From positions 136,734 through 200,733 of the IMG/VR virus record IMGVR_UViG_3300020463_000001: a stretch of DNA of 64,000 nucleotides; one strand, 5' to 3'. Source of the DNA: a virus. Lineage: Duplodnaviria > Caudoviricetes. This document shows positions 2-52,238 of this stretch, in pieces. The notes beneath the pieces are model-generated. The model ran no database searches, was not told where the DNA came from, and worked only from the letters and a program-made list of their open reading frames with translations. How positions within the stretch are numbered: position 1 is the first letter of the stretch; the number at the start of each line of letters is the position of its first letter. Made by a program: the position numbers and the translations under genes.

Positions 2-1900
2 GCTCCCACTGCTTCCGCACTACAAGTTGTTGCAACAGTCGGTGATTTGCCCGCTGGTGCTTCGGCCGGAGATCAAGCAGTTGTTCAATCAAATAATAAG
101 TTATACATCAAAACTGCAGACGGTTGGTATGCAGTAGCATTAATTAACACTGCTCCAAGTATATCTGGGAACAGTGCTACATACGAGCTCGCCACTGACA
201 TGACTCCAACAGTTATCACATTAACTGCAACAGATCCAGAAAATGATCCAGTAACATTTTCATATGCAGTCACTTCTGGAGATCTCAATGGAACTACAGT
301 ACAACAGGCAGATAATGTATTCACTGTAAGTCCACACGGATTAAATGATGCTACTTTCGAATTAACATTCTCCGCAAATGATACGGTGAATGTTGCAACA
401 TCAGTTTCTAGTTTTAGTTTGACTCATGGAATTGATTGGAGTAATCCAACTCAAATAGCTGTTCGAGGTTGGTGGGGAGTTAACATATACGAATCGCATG
501 GTCTTAATGTATCCAGTAATCAAAATCAGTGGCCAGGCGGTTCAGAACAGACAGCAGTAGCGTCATATTTTAAAAATGGAAAAAGTTGGGTTGTTGCTGG
601 AGATTCTAAGGTAACAGATGGAAGTACTGATGGTTTAATTTATGGTCTCGCCCTACACCCCGCAGCAGGACTACAAGAAGAATATGGAGGTGATTGGGAA
701 AATGCTCATTGGAGTTATCAGAATCCAAATCCATATTCTGCTTCATATGGCCAACCCGACTATTATGGTCAAAAGGTAGATGTATCACCAAATGCAACTT
801 GGGTAATTACCGGAGCAGAAAATGAAAATCCTCCGCAAGATTTTGGTAGACAAGCTGCTGGAATGGCATATCTATACAATTTAGATACAGATTCTTACGT
901 TACAATAAATGACCCCAATATATCTCATATGGGGAATTGGGGAGAAGCAGTTGCGGTCAACGATACTCATTGTGCGGTTGGTAAAACAGATTATGATTCT
1001 AAATCTGGAAAAGTTGGTATTTTTGAAAATGCAACTGGAAATCTTGTAACTTGGGTATATCATACAGGAACTCATTATCAAGACACAAGATGGCCGACTG
1101 ATTCTTGGCACACAACAGAAGCCAACGGTTACTTTGGATCACATATAGTAATGAATAATGAATATATGTGTGTTTCTGCTTCAAACGAACAGCCCGCCAA
1201 CGGCCATAACCAAATTGGTGCTGTGTATGTTTATGATATGACAAATCCTGCTAGTCCTGCATTTTTGTACAAATTAGAAAATCCGGATTATAGTGGTGCA
1301 AATGTTCCTACTTCAGTAATTGGTAATTCTCCATATCAAATGAATCACAGAGTACATTTTGGAGGTGATTCGACAAATCCGATGAGAGCATCTAGTATCC
1401 AAATTTCTGGAACTAAACTTGCTGTCGGTGCGCCAGGAAACTATACTGCAGATTCTCTTTCTGGGACTGGAGGAAGTCAAAACCAAGGATGGGGTGGAAG
1501 TTCATTTAATGTATCAGAAGAAGAGTATCAAAGAGGCGGAAAGATATTCGTATTTGATTTAACAACAGGAAATCTTATAACAGATATAGAACATCCAAAC
1601 AATCAATCATATGGAAACAGAAACTCTACCTCATTTGGAGCTGGATTCTTAGGAAAGAATTTTGCATTTAATGGAGATGTGGTTGTTGCTGGTAGAGGAA
1701 ATACAAAAGACATCGATATTTATAGTGCGACAGATGGAAGTATAATCAGTACTTTGGTCGATGCAATGCCCTTCACTTCGCAGATGGGTTATAGACCTCC
1801 TGCAGTTGCCATACAGGATGAATATATTGTAGTCTTTTACAAAGATGGAACAGACTACTATTCTGGGGGTCGGCCGACCATCAAGGTCTATAAAGCTTAA
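2..1900 (+). CDS. Virion structural/fibre-like protein with C-terminal beta-propeller; 5'-truncated by window edge
   Basis: Frame is open from base 2 (APTASALQVVATVGDLPAGA...). Shares the ATVxDLPA..LYI..W..ITLxATDPxxDxxTxSYxVTxGxLxGTTVxQxDNVFT block with 4819..7020, then FG-GAP-like repeats (G.VYVYD). Confidence 0.7.
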   Translation, partial: APTASALQVVATVGDLPAGASAGDQAVVQSNNKLYIKTADGWYAVALINTAPSISGNSATYELATDMTPTVITLTATDPENDPVTFSYAVTSGDLNGTTVQQADNVFTVSPHGLNDATFELTFSANDTVNVATSVSSFSLTHGIDWSNPTQIAVRGWWGVNIYESHGLNVSSNQNQWPGGSEQTAVASYFKNGKSWVVAGDSKVTDGSTDGLIYGLALHPAAGLQEEYGGDWENAHWSYQNPNPYSASYGQPDYYGQKVDVSPNATWVITGAENENPPQDFGRQAAGMAYLYNLDTDSYVTINDPNISHMGNWGEAVAVNDTHCAVGKTDYDSKSGKVGIFENATGNLVTWVYHTGTHYQDTRWPTDSWHTTEANGYFGSHIVMNNEYMCVSASNEQPANGHNQIGAVYVYDMTNPASPAFLYKLENPDYSGANVPTSVIGNSPYQMNHRVHFGGDSTNPMRASSIQISGTKLAVGAPGNYTADSLSGTGGSQNQGWGGSSFNVSEEEYQRGGKIFVFDLTTGNLITDIEHPNNQSYGNRNSTSFGAGFLGKNFAFNGDVVVAGRGNTKDIDIYSATDGSIISTLVDAMPFTSQMGYRPPAVAIQDEYIVVFYKDGTDYYSGGRPTIKVYKA

Positions 1901-1918
1901 TTTAAATAGGAAAAACAA

Positions 1919-4801
1919 ATGTCAGATACAAATTTAGATCCTTCAATAACCGCCCTCACTAATAGGGCATCTACAGTTGCTGTCACTGCGACTGCAAGAG
2001 AGTTAATGAATCTTTCAAGGCTTGCTCCTAGTTTGGAACAGTCAGAGAACACAGATTTAGAAGTTGCAATCAACGCAAGGGCAGAAGATCTGGCTCCATC
2101 CGCGACTGCAACAGAACTCAAGAGTATTGGTAAGGCAATCGGTAATGTTCTAGAACCAGAAACATTTGTCGCTGGTGGGACACTTCCAAATCAAGCACAA
2201 AACTCTGGTAACTTCCTTGCAACAAATGGAACTGCAGAATCTTGGGGTGGACTTTCAGTCTCTACTCTTAGTGAAGTCAATATATCTTCTATCATGAATG
2301 ACGAGACTTTAGTTTACAATCATGTCAATGGTCTCTTTGAAAATAACTCACAGGTTTTCAGAATCCAAGAAATCGGTTTAACAGAAAATATCCCTGCTTC
2401 TGGAGCATTTGAAGGACAGGTTGTTTTTGATCAACAAACATCAGAACTCAAATACTGGGACGGATCCGAATGGAAAGTTGCAGCGGTTGTTGCAGCTGCC
2501 GGTGGTGGTGGAACTTCTACGGTAGATTGGACAGGATCACAAACCACTCTTGCCACATTACCTCGCGGATCTGGTACAACTAGATTCGGAAGAATGGTTG
2601 TAATGAATAGTACTTATGTCGCGGTATCGGATTATGAATTCGATCAGGGCGGATATACAGACAACGGAAAGGTCACAGTATATCTAGTCGCAGATGGTTC
2701 TGAAGTATGGACTGTTTATGGGACGGAATCACATAATTATCATGGATACACTAATAACGGCGAGAAGGGGATGTTCATGTCCGAAAATCTTCTTGTTATC
2801 AATGATGGAGCTACTCGGTCATATGGAGACACTGGAGCAAGAGTTAGACTTTATGATGTGACCAATGGAAATTTATTAGGAACATTTGATGTTAGTGGTG
2901 ATACGAATATAAGCGTAAATGCTAGCAATCACTATGGGCGTTCTGTTGCCATCAATGACGATGAAACTAAACTTGCAATTGGGTCTCCCGAAGCTTCGCC
3001 ATCGACAGGAGGGAAGTGGGGGAGATTTTCTGTATATGATATATCCGATTTAAATAACTTGTCAAACACACCCATTCATTCTGTTGGTGGAGAAGATTTA
3101 CCAGCTAGTGATACTTACTCATTATTTGGATTTGATTTAGATTTTTCTGGAGTCAATACTTTGGTTGTAAGTGCTCCAGATTGGAAAGATGGTGGAGTTA
3201 AAACAGGTAGAACTTTTATATTTGATCTGACTGCAGCAGGAAATGGATTACAACAAAGTCTTCCCGGCAAAGCAGTTAGAGTTATTGCTTCCGGAGGAGA
3301 ATATTCTGGTGGAAATTTAGTTGTTGTTGCTTCAGACTGGCAAGCAGATCCTACAGAAAACGGATTAGTTAAAATTTGGGATTCAAATAGTTTCGGAACT
3401 GCAACACCAACTGCGACTATAAATTATCCCGATGGGGGAGCAAACGCGAGATTTGGTCATTCAACTGCCTTTGATGGGAACTACATATTGGTTGCTGGTC
3501 TTTATGCAAATACTGATACAACAGGCGGTGGTCAGATTTATGTTTATAACTTAGATGGAACTTCTGTTAGTCAGATATCAAGCCCAAATCCTACTACATG
3601 GGGTTCATTCGGATTCTGTGTTGCAGTAGATGCTTCTGGAAGCGGAAAGTGGGCAGTGGGTGCTACTGGGGAAGCAAAGGTTTATGTATTCCAACAGGCG
3701 ATGTCTGGAGGCGGTTCTGGTTCATCTTACACTGTAGTAGACTGGACTGCAGCAGACTCAACACTAACCACAATATGGGGGTCTAGAATCGGTCACACTC
3801 TAACTTCTACTCAATTATCAGATGGTAGAAATGTAGTAATCGCGGCCGTCAATAGCGGTCATTTCTACGCATATGATTTGGCAGATAACTCTCTGATATG
3901 GACTGTATCAACGTCGGGTCATGTCCCAGATGATAATGGAGCAATGGCTTCTTCCGGAGATTATTTTGCTGCTGTCGAAGGAGGGAGCGTTAGAGTTCGT
4001 TCAGCGCTTGACGGAAGTGCTGTTGACGGCGGGTCAGTTGAAAATGGAGTTGAAAGTATCCCAGGCTGGGGAATCTTCCAAGTCGAGAGTATTAGTATGC
4101 ATGGAAATTATATCTTCTTACCCAGAACAGCGTATAACGAGTATGCCATGGTCAAATGGGATACAAGGGAGATAGTCTGGCAATATAACTCAAATAATCA
4201 TCCTTGGAACATAGTTAATTCAAATCCAAATGCTGGTATCGCGGCTTATAACCACGACATGGGAGAAAATTATCTTGCAGTTCAAGATATGTATAGTCAT
4301 TCCGGAGCATATCAAGCTGGATGTGTATATGTGGTAGATGTTCTTACTGGCCAAGAAATTTCTAGACTTGACGATCCAAATCCTAGAGTTAATGGTAGAT
4401 TTGGTGGTATTGGTGGGAGAGAAAATGGAATTGCAGTTTCTGGAGACAAGGCTATTATTGGTGATCCCGAAGACGGTCATGGTAAAGTCCACATTTTCGA
4501 TATGCCCACAGGAACATTAGAATTCACAATAGATGAAAACACTGCTGGTGGGTCAGGCATAACCACTTATGCGCGACAGAGCATTGCTGGATACAATTTT
4601 GGTCAGGAAATCGAAGCATACGGAGACTACGCATTAATTTCTCACAATTGGGACTCTTTCATAGTTCAGATATCTACGGGCGAAATTAAACATGAAACTG
4701 ACCTTCTTAATATTGACAGAGTAACTATAGTAGAGAACTATGCGATTGGCGGAGATTTGAATACACAAAATCTAAGAATCATAAAAGGAATAATTTCTTA
4801 A
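1919..4801 (+). CDS. Tail fibre/receptor-binding-like protein, conserved N-terminus plus two propeller modules
   Basis: 960 aa. First ~195 aa are paralogous to 57183..59438. Repeated FG.sV / G.V.vyD propeller motifs. Confidence 0.65.
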   Translation: MSDTNLDPSITALTNRASTVAVTATARELMNLSRLAPSLEQSENTDLEVAINARAEDLAPSATATELKSIGKAIGNVLEPETFVAGGTLPNQAQNSGNFLATNGTAESWGGLSVSTLSEVNISSIMNDETLVYNHVNGLFENNSQVFRIQEIGLTENIPASGAFEGQVVFDQQTSELKYWDGSEWKVAAVVAAAGGGGTSTVDWTGSQTTLATLPRGSGTTRFGRMVVMNSTYVAVSDYEFDQGGYTDNGKVTVYLVADGSEVWTVYGTESHNYHGYTNNGEKGMFMSENLLVINDGATRSYGDTGARVRLYDVTNGNLLGTFDVSGDTNISVNASNHYGRSVAINDDETKLAIGSPEASPSTGGKWGRFSVYDISDLNNLSNTPIHSVGGEDLPASDTYSLFGFDLDFSGVNTLVVSAPDWKDGGVKTGRTFIFDLTAAGNGLQQSLPGKAVRVIASGGEYSGGNLVVVASDWQADPTENGLVKIWDSNSFGTATPTATINYPDGGANARFGHSTAFDGNYILVAGLYANTDTTGGGQIYVYNLDGTSVSQISSPNPTTWGSFGFCVAVDASGSGKWAVGATGEAKVYVFQQAMSGGGSGSSYTVVDWTAADSTLTTIWGSRIGHTLTSTQLSDGRNVVIAAVNSGHFYAYDLADNSLIWTVSTSGHVPDDNGAMASSGDYFAAVEGGSVRVRSALDGSAVDGGSVENGVESIPGWGIFQVESISMHGNYIFLPRTAYNEYAMVKWDTREIVWQYNSNNHPWNIVNSNPNAGIAAYNHDMGENYLAVQDMYSHSGAYQAGCVYVVDVLTGQEISRLDDPNPRVNGRFGGIGGRENGIAVSGDKAIIGDPEDGHGKVHIFDMPTGTLEFTIDENTAGGSGITTYARQSIAGYNFGQEIEAYGDYALISHNWDSFIVQISTGEIKHETDLLNIDRVTIVENYAIGGDLNTQNLRIIKGIIS

Positions 4802-11643: not shown

Positions 11644-13361
11644 TGTTAGAATTTCAAAAAATACGGTGGAAGAATTTTCTTTCCACTGGTGATAACTTTA
11701 CTGAAATATTATTTGACAAATCTCCAACCACATTAATCCTTGGTGCAAATGGAGCCGGAAAATCTACGGTTCTGGATGCACTCACCTTTGGATTGTTTGG
11801 TAAACCCTTTCGAAAGATAAACAAACCTCAGTTGGCGAACTCTGTCAATGAGAAAGATTGTCTTATTGAGATTGAGTTCAAGATAGGAAAGACTCAGTAT
11901 AAGATTCGTAGAGGTATCAAGCCTGGCATCTTTGAGATATATCATAATAAAAAGATGATCAATCAGGATTCCAAGATAAAAGACTATCAAAAATATCTAG
12001 AAGATAATATTCTCAAACTTAATTTTAAGTCTTTTACTCAAACAGTGATCTTGGGATCTGCTACTTTTGTTCCGTTCATGCAACTTTCGGCAAAAGATCG
12101 AAGAGACATCATAGAAGATCTATTAGACATTAAGATATTCTCTTCTATGAATGAGATACTGAAATCCAGATTAATAGACCATAAAGAAAATTTAAGAGAA
12201 ACCGGCAATGAAAGAAATAATATAGACAATCAGATCCACTTACAAGAATCTAGCATAGAAGAAATCAAGAAGGATAGAAAGAAACTTATACAAACTTCTA
12301 AGAAAAAGATAGAAGAGTATCAATTAAAGATTGATGAAAATGATTCTTGTATAGAAAAACTTACCGCAAAGATTGGTATGTTAAATGATACACTTGTTGA
12401 ATTAAAACCAGTACAAAAGAAAATATCCAAGATGGATAGTATTAGTGCTGGACTGACTTCTAAGATTAAGTCTCTTAAAGAAGATCAAGAGTTCTTTCAC
12501 GATATTGATAATTGTCCTACCTGTAAACAAGATGTTGATGCATCTCATAAAGAAATGATGATTGCAGAAAGGAAAGATAAACAAAAAGAAATAGAACAGG
12601 CCATAGAAGATTTTAAGAGTGAATATGAAGTTATTAATGCAAGGATGGATAAATTATTAAATACTCAGAATAAAGTATCTAATCTTACTGCAGATATATC
12701 CGAAAAAACTTCTCACAATAAAGGCCTCAAAAGTTCTATAAAGGATTACGAAAGAGAAGTAGAAGAACTTGAATCGACAGATACATCTACCACTAAGATG
12801 CGAAAAGATCTCAAGAAGTTTACTGATCAGAAAAATAGGATAGAAAGGATAAGAGAAGAACTTTTGGAAGAAAGAGAATACTTGAATGTTGCTTCTACAC
12901 TTCTTAAGGATGGTGGTATTAAGACTTCTATCATCAAATATTATCTTCCCATTATGAATGGTCTGATAAACAAGTATCTTCATCAAATGGATTTCTATGT
13001 TAACTTTACAATGGATGAAAACTTCTCAGAGAATATTAAGTCTCGCAATAGAGAAAACTTTTCTTACAGCTCATTCTCCGAAGGTGAAAAGATGCGAATA
13101 GACCTGGCTCTACTCTTCACTTGGAGAGAAGTCGCGAAGATGAAGAATAGTGTTAATACAAATCTTTTGATACTGGATGAAGTATTTGATAGTTCTCTAG
13201 ATAGTAATGGAACAGATGAGTTCTTAAAACTTCTCAATCAACTTGGCGGAAATAATGTATTTGTTATTTCACACAAAGGAGAGATCCTCTACGATAAATT
13301 TAGAAGTATCATCAAGTTTGATAAAATCAAAAACTTCAGTAAAATAGTGGAAGAGAAGTAA
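11643..13361 (+). CDS. 46: Recombination ATPase subunit gp46 (Rad50-like)
   Basis: GANGAGKS Walker A, CPTC hook, FSEGEKMR signature, LDEVFD. Confidence 0.95.
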   Translation: MLEFQKIRWKNFLSTGDNFTEILFDKSPTTLILGANGAGKSTVLDALTFGLFGKPFRKINKPQLANSVNEKDCLIEIEFKIGKTQYKIRRGIKPGIFEIYHNKKMINQDSKIKDYQKYLEDNILKLNFKSFTQTVILGSATFVPFMQLSAKDRRDIIEDLLDIKIFSSMNEILKSRLIDHKENLRETGNERNNIDNQIHLQESSIEEIKKDRKKLIQTSKKKIEEYQLKIDENDSCIEKLTAKIGMLNDTLVELKPVQKKISKMDSISAGLTSKIKSLKEDQEFFHDIDNCPTCKQDVDASHKEMMIAERKDKQKEIEQAIEDFKSEYEVINARMDKLLNTQNKVSNLTADISEKTSHNKGLKSSIKDYEREVEELESTDTSTTKMRKDLKKFTDQKNRIERIREELLEEREYLNVASTLLKDGGIKTSIIKYYLPIMNGLINKYLHQMDFYVNFTMDENFSENIKSRNRENFSYSSFSEGEKMRIDLALLFTWREVAKMKNSVNTNLLILDEVFDSSLDSNGTDEFLKLLNQLGGNNVFVISHKGEILYDKFRSIIKFDKIKNFSKIVEEK

Positions 13362-13549
13362 TGGATGGCGTGGATCTAGAAATCAAAAGGAAGGATTCTA
13401 CTCTGTTGATAAAAGTCAACAAAGAAGAGAAGAAAAAGTTTATTGCTCTGTGTGAGTTGAATGATTCCAGTGCATCCAGAGAGATTCGCAGATTTATGAA
13501 AGAATATATTAATAATTTTTCGGTGGAAATAAAACTTGACAACGGCTAG
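13361..13549 (+). CDS. Ribbon-helix-helix (CopG/Arc-like) DNA-binding protein
   Basis: Strand TLLIKV, helix KEEKKKFIALCE, helix SASREIRRFMKEYI. TAATG-coupled to gp46. Confidence 0.6.
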   Translation: MDGVDLEIKRKDSTLLIKVNKEEKKKFIALCELNDSSASREIRRFMKEYINNFSVEIKLDNG

Positions 13550-14759
13550 AAAATTTGAGACAATGGTTCCCATGTATCAACCTTATACTCTAAAGGATGT
13601 GTTTGCAGCATCCGCACAGAATAAATTTAACGTCATATCTACATTCGCTGGCGGTGGTGGATCTAGTACTGGTTATCGTCTTGCTGGCGGTAATGTATTG
13701 TGTGTAAATGAATTTGTCGAAGAGGCACAAAATACCTACGCAGAAAACTATCCAAACACTCCTATACTACCTAACGATATTAAGGAGTTGAGTGGATCAG
13801 ACTTTTTAGATATTGTCGGATTGGGTGTGGGCGAGTTAGATATTCTTGATGGTTCGCCACCGTGTTCTGCATTTTCAGTTGCAGGAAAACTATCTCACAA
13901 TGTTAAAAAGGAAGAGATGGTTGATTTGTTTGGAGAGACAACTATAGTCAATGTGTCTGGAAAACATTCAGATGGTTGGGGTCAGACTAAGAATTATTCT
14001 GACGGAAAGATGGTAGAGAATATCGAAGATCTTTTCTTTGAGTTCCTTAGAGTTGCAAATGATATCAAACCCAAAGTGATTGTTGCGGAGAATGTTAAAG
14101 GATTGACCATAGGCGAGGCGAAACAATACTATAATAAAATTCTCAACGAGTTCGAAAAGATAGGGTATGATGTTTCATCTCAAGTCATGGACGCAAGATA
14201 TTATGGTGTTTCTCAGACAAGAACTAGGGTAATCTTTATCGGCATTAGACACGATATTACTGAGAAGGCTGGTTTTAACTTTATGACTGTTGGAAATATT
14301 TTTCCGCAACCGTCCAGAAAAATAATTCCCTTGATGGATGCCCTAGTAGATTTAGAATACGATCAAGAAGAAGTTGATTATCTCACAGAGAAGTTTACTA
14401 AAACTGCGTATTGGTTACAGACCGGAAGTAAGATGGAAGACGATCCAAAGAAAGTTTTGACTGGAATGGATTATCATCCGAAAGGACATCACTTTAACCT
14501 CAAAAGAGTGTCCAGATACGCACCAGCACCCACGCTAACGGCGATGGGGAGTAATGACACTACAGCAGGTGCATTCCACTGGGCCGAACCTAGAAAACTC
14601 ACTCTGGGGGAATTAAAGAGGATTCAGAGTTTACCTGATGACTTCAAGTTGACCGGAAAATGGAACCAGAAATCAGAAAGAATCGGTAGAATGGTTCCGC
14701 CAAAAATGATGCAGTCAATTGCTGCGTCTATCTATGAAAATGTATTGGAGAAAATATGA
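13536..14759 (+). CDS. C5-cytosine DNA methyltransferase family (probable carboxymethyltransferase)
   Basis: Motif I STFAGGGG, motif IV GSPPCSAFS, motif VI AENVKGL, motif VIII QTRTRVIFIG; motif X reads IGRMVPP instead of IGN(A/S)VPP. True start may be ATG 13563 or 13572. Confidence 0.9.
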   Translation: MTTARKFETMVPMYQPYTLKDVFAASAQNKFNVISTFAGGGGSSTGYRLAGGNVLCVNEFVEEAQNTYAENYPNTPILPNDIKELSGSDFLDIVGLGVGELDILDGSPPCSAFSVAGKLSHNVKKEEMVDLFGETTIVNVSGKHSDGWGQTKNYSDGKMVENIEDLFFEFLRVANDIKPKVIVAENVKGLTIGEAKQYYNKILNEFEKIGYDVSSQVMDARYYGVSQTRTRVIFIGIRHDITEKAGFNFMTVGNIFPQPSRKIIPLMDALVDLEYDQEEVDYLTEKFTKTAYWLQTGSKMEDDPKKVLTGMDYHPKGHHFNLKRVSRYAPAPTLTAMGSNDTTAGAFHWAEPRKLTLGELKRIQSLPDDFKLTGKWNQKSERIGRMVPPKMMQSIAASIYENVLEKI

Positions 14760-15304
14760 GCAACGTAAGCCAATTGATCGCTAAACATAATGGTGATGAT
14801 CCTTTTAACGATGAAGCCCAAAGAAACGCGCTTAAAAGTTTCCTTCGCACAGACCTTGATTTTGTCAGATTTATTTTAGACTATGCAGAAATAAAAAGTG
14901 ACGCTAAGCCATGTGATATTATAGATGACCCTTTAGGAGAAAAAAGAGTAGACTTGGGAATAATAGATAAAAATTCTAATGTTCGATGTTTAGTTGAAGT
15001 TGATTACTATTTCAAATGGGATCCATTTTGGCCAAAAAACTATAAAAATGCTCACGCATTAGAGAGAAAAATAAAATATTGGAGGGGCAAAAATATCCCA
15101 TATATTGGTTGTACTTTTAGTAAAAATCTCGATAAGATGATAGTAATTACAGATGAACTTATAACAGAGTATATGCACACCAAACGAAAAAAGTGGGTAG
15201 AACTTCATGGCGAGTTGGTAGAAGATGTTTTCATTAGTATACCCCCCTTCAGAGCGTTTAAGTTTGGAGATTGGCAAGACGACGAATTACGGAGAGTTTC
15301 ATAA
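14756..15304 (+). CDS. Hypothetical, PD-(D/E)xK nuclease-like
   Basis: DDPLGEKRVDLGII...LVEVD pattern. ATGA and TAATG overlaps with both neighbours. Confidence 0.45.
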   Translation: MSNVSQLIAKHNGDDPFNDEAQRNALKSFLRTDLDFVRFILDYAEIKSDAKPCDIIDDPLGEKRVDLGIIDKNSNVRCLVEVDYYFKWDPFWPKNYKNAHALERKIKYWRGKNIPYIGCTFSKNLDKMIVITDELITEYMHTKRKKWVELHGELVEDVFISIPPFRAFKFGDWQDDELRRVS

Positions 15305-15990
15305 TGGCAGACTTTACTTTTGCACACAGAAAAGAGGGCTTCGATGCTCACATAGATGCATCTATTCGTCACTACTCATCACTTCATGATGATATAGTTG
15401 CAATGTCTAGATACTTTGTAGAGAATGATACCAGTGTAGTTGATATTGGTTGCTCTACTGGAAAAACTCTAGGGGCAATGATTGACCAGAATAAGGAATC
15501 GGCTCCTAATGCACAGTATCATGGAGTTGAAAACGCAGATGGATTTGCGGAAGATATGAAATCCAGAGAAGAAGAATATGTTGATTCTAATCTCAGTTTA
15601 CATTTTCAAGATGTAAGAAACTTTGTATTTCCTGTTGATTCTTCATTCATAACGAGCATATTTACTTTACAGTTTATTCCAAAACGAGATCGACAATCTA
15701 TTCTGGATTCGATATATGATTCTCTTCTTCCCGGCGGAGCATTCGTTTTTTCTGAGAAGACTTATGCCTCATCTCCAGAACTAGAACAGATACTCACATT
15801 CCTCTTTTATGACCATAAAAGAAAAGAGTTTTCCTGTGAAGATATTATGGACAAAGAATATACTTTGAGATCAATGCTGAAACCAATGCACTGGGACGAT
15901 TTACTATCCATGATGTACGAGGCAGGATTCCAAGAAGTTCAACCTTTTTGGAGAAATCATCTATTCGTAGGAGCAATCGCTATAAAATAG
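15304..15990 (+). CDS. cmoA: CmoA-like SAM-dependent enzyme (carboxy-SAM synthase family)
   Basis: FxF..GFDAHIDASIRHY, VVDIGCSTG, IFTLQFI, LLPGGAFVFSEK and AGF match the CmoA family. ATG 15304 overlaps the upstream TAA. Confidence 0.8.
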   Translation: MADFTFAHRKEGFDAHIDASIRHYSSLHDDIVAMSRYFVENDTSVVDIGCSTGKTLGAMIDQNKESAPNAQYHGVENADGFAEDMKSREEEYVDSNLSLHFQDVRNFVFPVDSSFITSIFTLQFIPKRDRQSILDSIYDSLLPGGAFVFSEKTYASSPELEQILTFLFYDHKRKEFSCEDIMDKEYTLRSMLKPMHWDDLLSMMYEAGFQEVQPFWRNHLFVGAIAIK

Positions 15991-51387: not shown

Positions 51388-51687
51388 ATGCAGATAATTT
51401 ACGGCAGCATGAGACACGATCCATCAGGTAGAAAACGGAAAACGTCTCGCAAATCTACTAAAAAATACCAACAAGAATTTCGTCCGCTCAAGACTAAACC
51501 TAATGTCCTTAGACAAGAAACTGTTTATCCTTCTAGAGAGTTGACAAGTTCGACTACTTGTGGTATGATAGAAAAACAAAAATATACAGGCGATTCTATT
51601 GTAGGTATCGCCACTATGCATAAGTCTAACGCAGTCCCAGTTACAAGTGCAAAATACGCAGAAGAAATATCAAGGATGGGGAAATGA
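51388..51687 (+). CDS. Basic hypothetical
   Basis: YTG..IVGIATMHKSNAVPV motif. Confidence 0.6.
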   Translation: MQIIYGSMRHDPSGRKRKTSRKSTKKYQQEFRPLKTKPNVLRQETVYPSRELTSSTTCGMIEKQKYTGDSIVGIATMHKSNAVPVTSAKYAEEISRMGK

Positions 51688-52238
51688 ATGTATTTGTATT
51701 AAGTCGCGATCCGGTTGAGGCAGCACAACAACAGTGTGATAAACACATTCCGAAGATGGTTGTTGAATCAGCTCAGATGCTCTCAACAGTCCATCGTATA
51801 CTGGATGGAGTTGAAATGTTGAAACCATCTGTATCCGGAAAAACACAAGTAAAGTATTATATGTTGCCGGACAATAGAGAACTAACTCTATACAAGGCTG
51901 TTCATCATAAACATCCATGCACTGTATGGACTGGTGAATCTTTCATCAATTACAGGTGGCACTGGAAACATTTTTCTGCGCTCTGTGACGAATATACGCA
52001 CCGCTACGGTAAGGTTCACGCAACTGATACGAAACTACGAGAAGAACTGGAAAGGATGCCAGACAACATCCCACGCACCAGAATGACCGATTTTAAACTG
52101 GCAATGCAGTCAAATCCAGAGTGTATGTTCCCAGAAGATCCTGTTAAGTCATATCAAAAATTTTACATGACAAAACAGAAAAGATTCAATATGAAATGGA
52201 CTAACAGAAAAGTACCGGAGTGGTTTAAGTATGAGTGA
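51684..52238 (+). CDS. Pyrimidine-dimer DNA glycosylase (DenV)-like family
   Basis: MNVFVL.DP..A..CDKH..KMVVESAQMLST..HPCTVW..EYT.RYGK.H. Confidence 0.7.
   Translation: MNVFVLSRDPVEAAQQQCDKHIPKMVVESAQMLSTVHRILDGVEMLKPSVSGKTQVKYYMLPDNRELTLYKAVHHKHPCTVWTGESFINYRWHWKHFSALCDEYTHRYGKVHATDTKLREELERMPDNIPRTRMTDFKLAMQSNPECMFPEDPVKSYQKFYMTKQKRFNMKWTNRKVPEWFKYE

Follow-up and report, generated by a model that had tools for sequence, protein, structure and literature searches.

The locus examined here raises the question of what a small open reading frame (ORF) is doing between two genes of a DNA modification pathway, and whether it belongs to that pathway at all. The stretch analysed, referred to below as the window, comprises 64,000 nucleotides (positions 136,734 to 200,733) of the IMG/VR virus record IMGVR_UViG_3300020463_000001. 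The ORF, at 14756-15304 on the plus strand of the window, encodes 182 amino acids and lies between the gene for CmoX, a DNA cytosine C5-carboxymethyltransferase, and the gene for a CmoA-like carboxy-S-adenosylmethionine (carboxy-SAM) synthase, both of the 5-carboxymethylcytosine (5cxmC) pathway. An earlier note on this DNA had likened the order regulator, methyltransferase, nuclease and CmoA to a type II restriction-modification (R-M) operon. It had named a selfish endonuclease among the alternatives and proposed profile searches, structure prediction and a survey of the co-occurrence of homologues with the two neighbours as checks. The distribution of the gene supports the selfish alternative, with cleavage and homing as putative activities. 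The most probable reading of the ORF, at roughly 0.55, is a mobile gene that is free-standing and homing-endonuclease-like, belongs to a PD-(D/E)xK-fold family not annotated before and has inserted precisely at the CmoX-CmoA junction.

Presence and absence at the CmoX-CmoA junction

The ORF overlaps both of its neighbours, as the earlier note had described. Its ATG overlaps the stop codon of CmoX (ATGA at 14756-14759), and since its TAA shares the sequence TAATG at 15302-15306 with the ATG of CmoA, the start of CmoA is at 15304. In three near-identical phages (L075, L076 and L131) the five nucleotides TTAAT stand in place of exactly 14756-15304, and the polymorphic segment matches the limits of the ORF to the base. 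The flanks are 95-100% identical, with the end of CmoX (EKI and stop) preserved. Compared with the window these phages are 97% identical in CmoX, 98-99% in CmoA, 88-95% in gp46 and 92-95% in the small ribbon-helix-helix-like (RHH) gene that precedes CmoX. No second copy of the ORF was seen in the 61-127 kb examined for each of these ORF-less relatives.

The distribution of the ORF is sporadic also in a larger sample. Informative IMG/VR loci, with a CmoX 74-97% identical to that of the window and enough downstream sequence, numbered 66. CmoX is directly followed by CmoA in 61 of these, and the ORF sits between the two genes in one (L090). In L152 (IMGVR_UViG_3300037537_000590) a member of the same family, with E 8e-49 to the family profile, is found at 2373-2924 after CmoA and before UvsX, which is a second, different position adjoining the carboxymethylation cassette. 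In L125 (IMGVR_UViG_3300031801_000943) the CmoX-CmoA junction is occupied at 2083-2793 by a 236-aa HNH homing endonuclease (phrog_655, E 3.2e-38), whose Pfam HNH score falls slightly short of the cut-off. This junction seems to be an insertion hot spot for endonuclease genes.

Mapped on the CmoX tree, the ORF-carrying state requires at least four changes. The closest subfamily is found at the junction in four separate CmoX lineages (five compared loci), and the identities among the ORFs are out of step with the CmoX relationships; the window ORF is closest to the ORF of L005, though the L005 CmoX is the most distant. The ORF is absent from the cultured cyanophages S-B43, S-CRM01 and RN05-S, which carry the system in the order CmoA-(CmoY)-CmoX, and a tblastn search of 50,697 cultured-phage records with the ORF and two distant family members (P0008 and P0029) gave no match. 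Among the contigs of four marine runs, ORF-carrying alleles recur in two further studies, with a contig containing the whole ORF in run X3 and pieces of it in X5. None of the contigs of these four runs joins across the ORF.

Fold and conserved residues

A word-indexed search with the ORF protein gave four relatives, and an exhaustive profile search of 1.84 billion representatives gave 71 clusters (50% identity) at E < 1e-3. About 50 full-length members were aligned, with a mean identity of only about 20%. D66 and K105 are invariant across these members, and conservation is 90% or higher at D19, P59, W88, P93 and R104. An acidic residue occupies each of positions 81 and 83 (EVD or DLE). Among the five closest sequences, D66, E81 and D83 show no variation.

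The AlphaFold2 (AF2) model from 50 homologues has a predicted local distance difference test (pLDDT) of 90 and a predicted template modelling score (pTM) of 0.85, and supersedes an earlier model from five sequences with pLDDT 73 and weak Foldseek matches. The layout is a helix at residues 20-32, strands at 54-57, 67-70, 76-84 and 99-102, and a helix at 103-108. D66 is placed just before strand 2 and E81-x-D83 within strand 3, while R104-K105 open the helix after strand 4. The alpha-beta-beta-beta-alpha-beta core of the PD-(D/E)xK superfamily is thus present in the predicted structure. The structural matches are almost all PD-(D/E)xK nucleases. D212 is the top match (Z 9.2, 134 aligned, root mean square deviation (rmsd) 4.3), and others are Hjc (Z 7.5), NhoI (6.6), RecU (6.2), MspI (6.1) and I-Ssp6803I (6.1); the nuclease domain of SPARDA was matched by Foldseek with E 4.8e-5. 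Because the model is confident and the structure searches return almost only such nucleases, the predicted PD-(D/E)xK fold is sound. Atlas feature and structure searches led to unnamed viral clusters, in one of which 10-14% of the members carry the label PDDEXK_14, a lead only.

Like D212 of the fusellovirus SSV1 (PDB 2W8M) and archaeal Hjc, which are its best structural matches over nearly the whole protein, the ORF protein is a compact single domain. It differs from them in sequence (8-13% identity) and in that the Lys of the ExK motif is replaced by an acidic residue, with the conserved R104-K105 on the next helix instead. From the catalytic signature D...(D/E)-x-K, D66 and E/D81 are present and position 83 is D or E, not K. 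This is the nuclease-like pattern, with Asp at the usual place of Lys, that the earlier note had pointed out in IIDDPLGEKRVDLG...LVEVDYYFKW (also written ..DDPLGEKRVDLG..LVEVDYYFKW..). The pattern is present and the fold that it suggested is borne out, with position 83 occupied by Asp or Glu in the family. As judged from the sequence the active site is non-canonical, an acidic residue standing in place of the expected Lys. BamHI-type enzymes operate with an acidic residue at that position.

The ORF had no significant match in Pfam, PHROGs or NCBIfam. The 50 family members gave scattered single weak matches only when compared with Pfam (Mrr_cat, E 0.019, in one member), and a profile search of PDB sequences with the family gave nothing relevant. 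The proposed profile searches and structure prediction together gave a nuclease-like fold, from AF2, Foldseek and Z scores, and no matching library family.

Distribution of the family

Distant members of the family are found at other junctions of the T4-like replication module: between gp44 and gp62, immediately upstream of gp43, and after a CobS-like ATPase gene. Another member precedes a homologue of the window ORF 51684-52238, and further sites exist. The genes gp44 and gp62 are adjacent in the window and are split by a family member in L014, L015 and L018. The members are located throughout in the replication/recombination module, in the same orientation as their neighbours.

The survey of co-occurrence showed that homologues exist independently of the CmoX/CmoA pair, an outcome that the earlier note had itself listed as refuting its R-M reading. 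Five phage records (74-151 kb) with a family member contain neither a PF00145 methyltransferase nor CmoA. As a positive control, PF00145 was detected in 9 of 14 reference genomes.

Sequence and signals around the insert

A mosaic patch, possibly of recombinational origin, abuts the insert. It consists of the 56 nt at the 3' end of CmoX (14700-14755, plus strand) and was recognised from pairwise identities among ORF-carrying alleles. The window and L009 are 71% identical in this patch, whereas their flanks are 94-95% and their ORFs 97% identical. The identity of the window to L075 is 100% over 14700-14755, and a contig from run X1 diverges from the window at 14695. The patch and the ORF relationships that do not track CmoX are hints, both indirect, of co-conversion or biased inheritance. 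Two strongly divergent versions of the last approximately 20 codons of CmoX, which follow directly on the GRMVPP Arg motif, occur in the population, with the switch at about 14695-14700. One of these C-terminal versions resembles the CmoX of S-B43 (..PPLMM.AIA..).

The signals for translation are closely fitted to the insert. A putative Shine-Dalgarno sequence, GGAG, is read at 14747-14750 (plus strand), 5 nt upstream of the ATG of the ORF. In ORF-less alleles the same GGAG would serve the TTG start of CmoA. The sequence GGAGAG at 15291-15296 (plus strand) lies within the last codons of the ORF (ELRRVS and stop), 7 nt upstream of the CmoA ATG, and a replacement ribosome-binding site for CmoA would therefore come with the insert. 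The ELRRVS tail is conserved in the subfamily at the CmoX-CmoA junction. CmoA starts with ATG in the window (15304) and with TTG in the near-identical ORF-less alleles (L075:4725), so the insertion may alter the translation efficiency of CmoA. A scan for sigma-70-type promoters and terminators around the ORF gave results no better than shuffled sequence.

The impression of the earlier note that the ORF is more AT-rich did not hold. Its GC content is 34.6%, compared with a mean of 38.2% (sd 3.8%) for 549-nt segments of the window (z = -0.94), and 19% of such segments have a GC content as low or lower. The gp46 gene near the ORF has 32.1%. AT-richness was rejected as a cue for the ORF on the basis of the z value.

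Homing and the alternative explanations

The free-standing endonucleases of T4 occupy intergenic positions flanked by genes conserved across related phages (PMC2988022), and homing endonuclease genes cluster near essential genes and recombination boundaries (PMC10448857). The ORF likewise separates two genes that related phages conserve side by side, and close relatives differ in its presence, with clean boundaries. It is in this respect like the Seg (GIY-YIG) and Mob (HNH) genes of T4-like phages (PMC2988022), small genes wedged between conserved ones. Its family resembles them also in occupying many junctions in replication and nucleotide metabolism, packed so tightly that the neighbours stay expressed, and in the mosaic sequence alongside. 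Unlike Seg and Mob, the ORF protein has a PD-(D/E)xK fold and no separate DNA-binding domain, and one copy is seen per genome. With I-Ssp6803I of a cyanobacterial tRNA intron (PDB 2OST) it shares a size of about 150-180 aa, the fold (Z 6.1, 110 aligned, rmsd 3.6) and a presumed homing lifestyle. The ORF differs in being free-standing and not intron-encoded and in having no detectable sequence similarity to that enzyme, and resolvases and restriction enzymes match its structure at least as well. Homing is favoured because of the combination of nuclease fold, exact insertion, absence from near-identical relatives, many junctions, an HNH enzyme at the same junction and the mosaic patch.

From this combination we infer nuclease activity, a target site and homing. 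In a mixed infection the acidic, metal-binding cluster of D66, E81 and D83, possibly with D19, and R104/K105 would cleave the allele without the ORF in a related phage, the cut falling at or close to the junction of the CmoX 3' end and the CmoA 5' end. Repair by recombination, with the ORF-carrying genome as template, would then transfer the ORF together with part of its flanks to the cleaved genome. For the operon the insert would be harmless, as it would use the former CmoA Shine-Dalgarno sequence, overlap the CmoX stop and bring a new GGAGAG and ATG for CmoA. The ORF is not a component of the carboxymethylation pathway. It is not present wherever the 5cxmC pathway operates, being absent from S-B43, S-CRM01 and RN05-S, and a role as pathway component was rejected on its distribution.

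Several observations weigh against homing. Only one family copy per genome was found in six large records, whereas seg and mob genes are numerous in T4. A single compact domain makes up the protein, without a separate DNA-binding module, and because of the acidic residue at the canonical Lys position catalysis is not guaranteed. The closest subfamily is always at the CmoX-CmoA junction, with one further member, that of L152, just after CmoA, and some functional tie to the cassette is therefore possible. Optional genes flanked by conserved ones can also be ordinary accessory genes (morons), and the ORF could be one of them. In that case the nuclease would benefit the phage in some way other than self-propagation, for example by host DNA degradation, exclusion of co-infecting phages, anti-defence or processing of recombination intermediates like Hjc, RecU and D212, and would be gained and lost sporadically by ordinary recombination. 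The fold and the conserved acidic residues suit such a role equally, the best structural matches are D212 and Holliday-junction resolvases and not a homing endonuclease, and the single copy and the constant, co-oriented location in the replication/recombination module point the same way. Against it, the ORF is dispensable, near-identical phages lacking it without carrying a second copy, and the base-exact insertion, the many core-gene junctions and the HNH homing endonuclease at CmoX-CmoA fit homing better. An accessory function is the main rival, though less likely than homing. It is unlikely that the protein is a catalytically dead DNA binder of PD-(D/E)xK fold, that is, a regulator, a reader of modified DNA or a decayed homing endonuclease, as the replacement of the canonical Lys by Asp or Glu and the failure to match any nuclease model in Pfam, PHROG or NCBIfam might suggest. 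At an overall identity of only about 20%, D66, K105 and R104 vary little or not at all and acidic residues persist at positions 81 and 83, which is the pattern to which selection on an active site leads.

The R-M reading makes the ORF the restriction half of a carboxymethyl-based module that cuts host or competitor DNA lacking 5cxmC at CmoX sites. Translation of the gene is coupled to that of its two neighbours, a bona fide CmoX and CmoA, and the closest subfamily has this position in four separate CmoX lineages. As in type II R-M operons, a gene with a nuclease fold adjoins a co-oriented gene of the C5-methyltransferase family, with a small upstream RHH gene that resembles a C-protein, and the modification-aware enzymes NhoI and DpnI are among the structural neighbours at modest Z scores (5.4-6.6). 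A type II nuclease, however, is found together with its cognate methyltransferase and is dependent on it. Here the two are not co-inherited, and alleles that lack the nuclease retain the RHH gene. The ORF is lacking from 61 of the 66 CmoX-CmoA loci and from the experimentally characterised S-B43 system, and the near-identical phages L075, L076 and L131 differ from the window by its absence. Homologues occur at unrelated junctions and in records without PF00145 (controls positive) and without CmoA. Since homologues are independent of the pair and the pathway works without the gene, the ORF was rejected on distribution as an R-M partner of CmoX, and the reading of the earlier note is very improbable. 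The CmoX of S-B43 modifies the 2-bp motif GC after replication, with only about 75% of the sites modified (PMC12783734). A nuclease sharing this specificity would therefore endanger the DNA of its own phage.

A related proposal, also quite unlikely, is that the nuclease reads the carboxymethyl mark and cuts the CmoX/CmoA region, or GC-containing DNA, only if unmodified, with 5cxmC as a label of self. If this were true, the protein would be a homing or exclusion enzyme and an R-M-like phage-borne weapon against unmodified competitors or host DNA. Reading of the mark would also account for the closest subfamily staying within the carboxymethylation cassette.

Flanking genes and other observations

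CmoX (13536-14759, plus strand) matches PF00145 with E 4.7e-57 and SpCmoX (8YF3) with E 3.9e-144. In the alignment to the crystal structure of S-B43 CmoX (8YF3) the segments DGSPPCSAFS and ERIGRMVPP are seen. The two defining features of CmoX (PMC12783734), SPPC and an Arg corresponding to R350 of SpCmoX, are thus kept. The CmoA-like carboxy-SAM synthase (15304-15990, plus strand) matches TIGR00740 with E 7.3e-27, below the curated cut-off, and phrog_4752 with E 3.3e-57, and is 52% identical to the biochemically proven CmoA of S-B43. The carboxymethylation role given to both neighbours in the earlier note agrees with these matches and with the published system (PMC12783734). Because the flanking genes are a genuine CmoX/CmoA pair, the cassette of the window is predicted to make 5cxmC.

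The CmoX/CmoA system for 5cxmC was published in December 2025, and S-B43 is the phage in which 5cxmC and 5gcxmC were demonstrated (PMC12783734). The CmoX and CmoA of the window belong to that system. Unlike the window, S-B43 has the order CmoA-CmoY-CmoX and no nuclease-like ORF, and the ORF is outside the published system. The layout is new to the literature; the earlier note knew of no description of it, and PMC12783734 makes no mention of the ORF.

The RHH-like gene (13361-13549, plus strand) overlaps the start of CmoX. It matches RHH_9 weakly (E 0.005) and phrog_19878 with E 3.9e-10. It is retained in L075, L076, L077 and L131 with 90-95% identity, and is kept in relatives with and without the nuclease ORF. 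The gene therefore belongs with CmoX and not with the nuclease, and is perhaps a regulator that goes with CmoX.

The source genome is a complete 200,733-bp record with terminal repeats. It comes from an uncultured T4-like phage of marine origin, and its gp43 shares only 51% identity with cyanomyovirus gp43. A gene of the Asn-synthase family (CmoY-type), as present in S-B43 and in the phages of L001 and L002, was not found in the complete 200,733-bp genome. The phage may stop at plain 5cxmC or may use an unrelated ligase.

Two further observations concern other loci. In L079 (IMGVR_UViG_3300037537_000376), another of the 66 informative loci, two genes for sugar-nucleotide enzymes lie between CmoX and CmoA at 1435-3206. 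One is UDP-glucose/GDP-mannose dehydrogenase-like (PF00984, 1.7e-22) and the other belongs to the NAD-dependent epimerase/dehydratases (PF01370, 7.6e-44). The pair may be an unrelated insert, or it may elaborate the modification in a different way that is based on sugar. A 461-aa ATP-grasp/RimK-like gene is found directly after regA in L014 (3169-4554) and L015 (1522-2907), which are T4-like phages bearing the family member between gp44 and gp62.

Significance

The CmoX/CmoA context was already known; the unannotated ORF family is new. It comprises about 70 clusters at 50% identity and has no Pfam, PHROG or NCBIfam model. PD-(D/E)xK homing enzymes are rare, and the classic one, I-Ssp6803I, is intron-encoded. 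The ORF family probably represents a new free-standing lineage of homing endonucleases, carried by uncultured T4-like phages that are abundant in the sea. For the 5cxmC cassette the finding means that it has no restriction enzyme of its own, and the family is useful in the annotation of such cassettes. If active, the family would provide compact site-specific nucleases on a new scaffold. As an active enzyme must act on or around 5cxmC-modified genomes, the family would lend itself to studying how homing enzymes deal with hypermodified DNA, and it would mark hot spots of recombination at which phages exchange genes for DNA modification.

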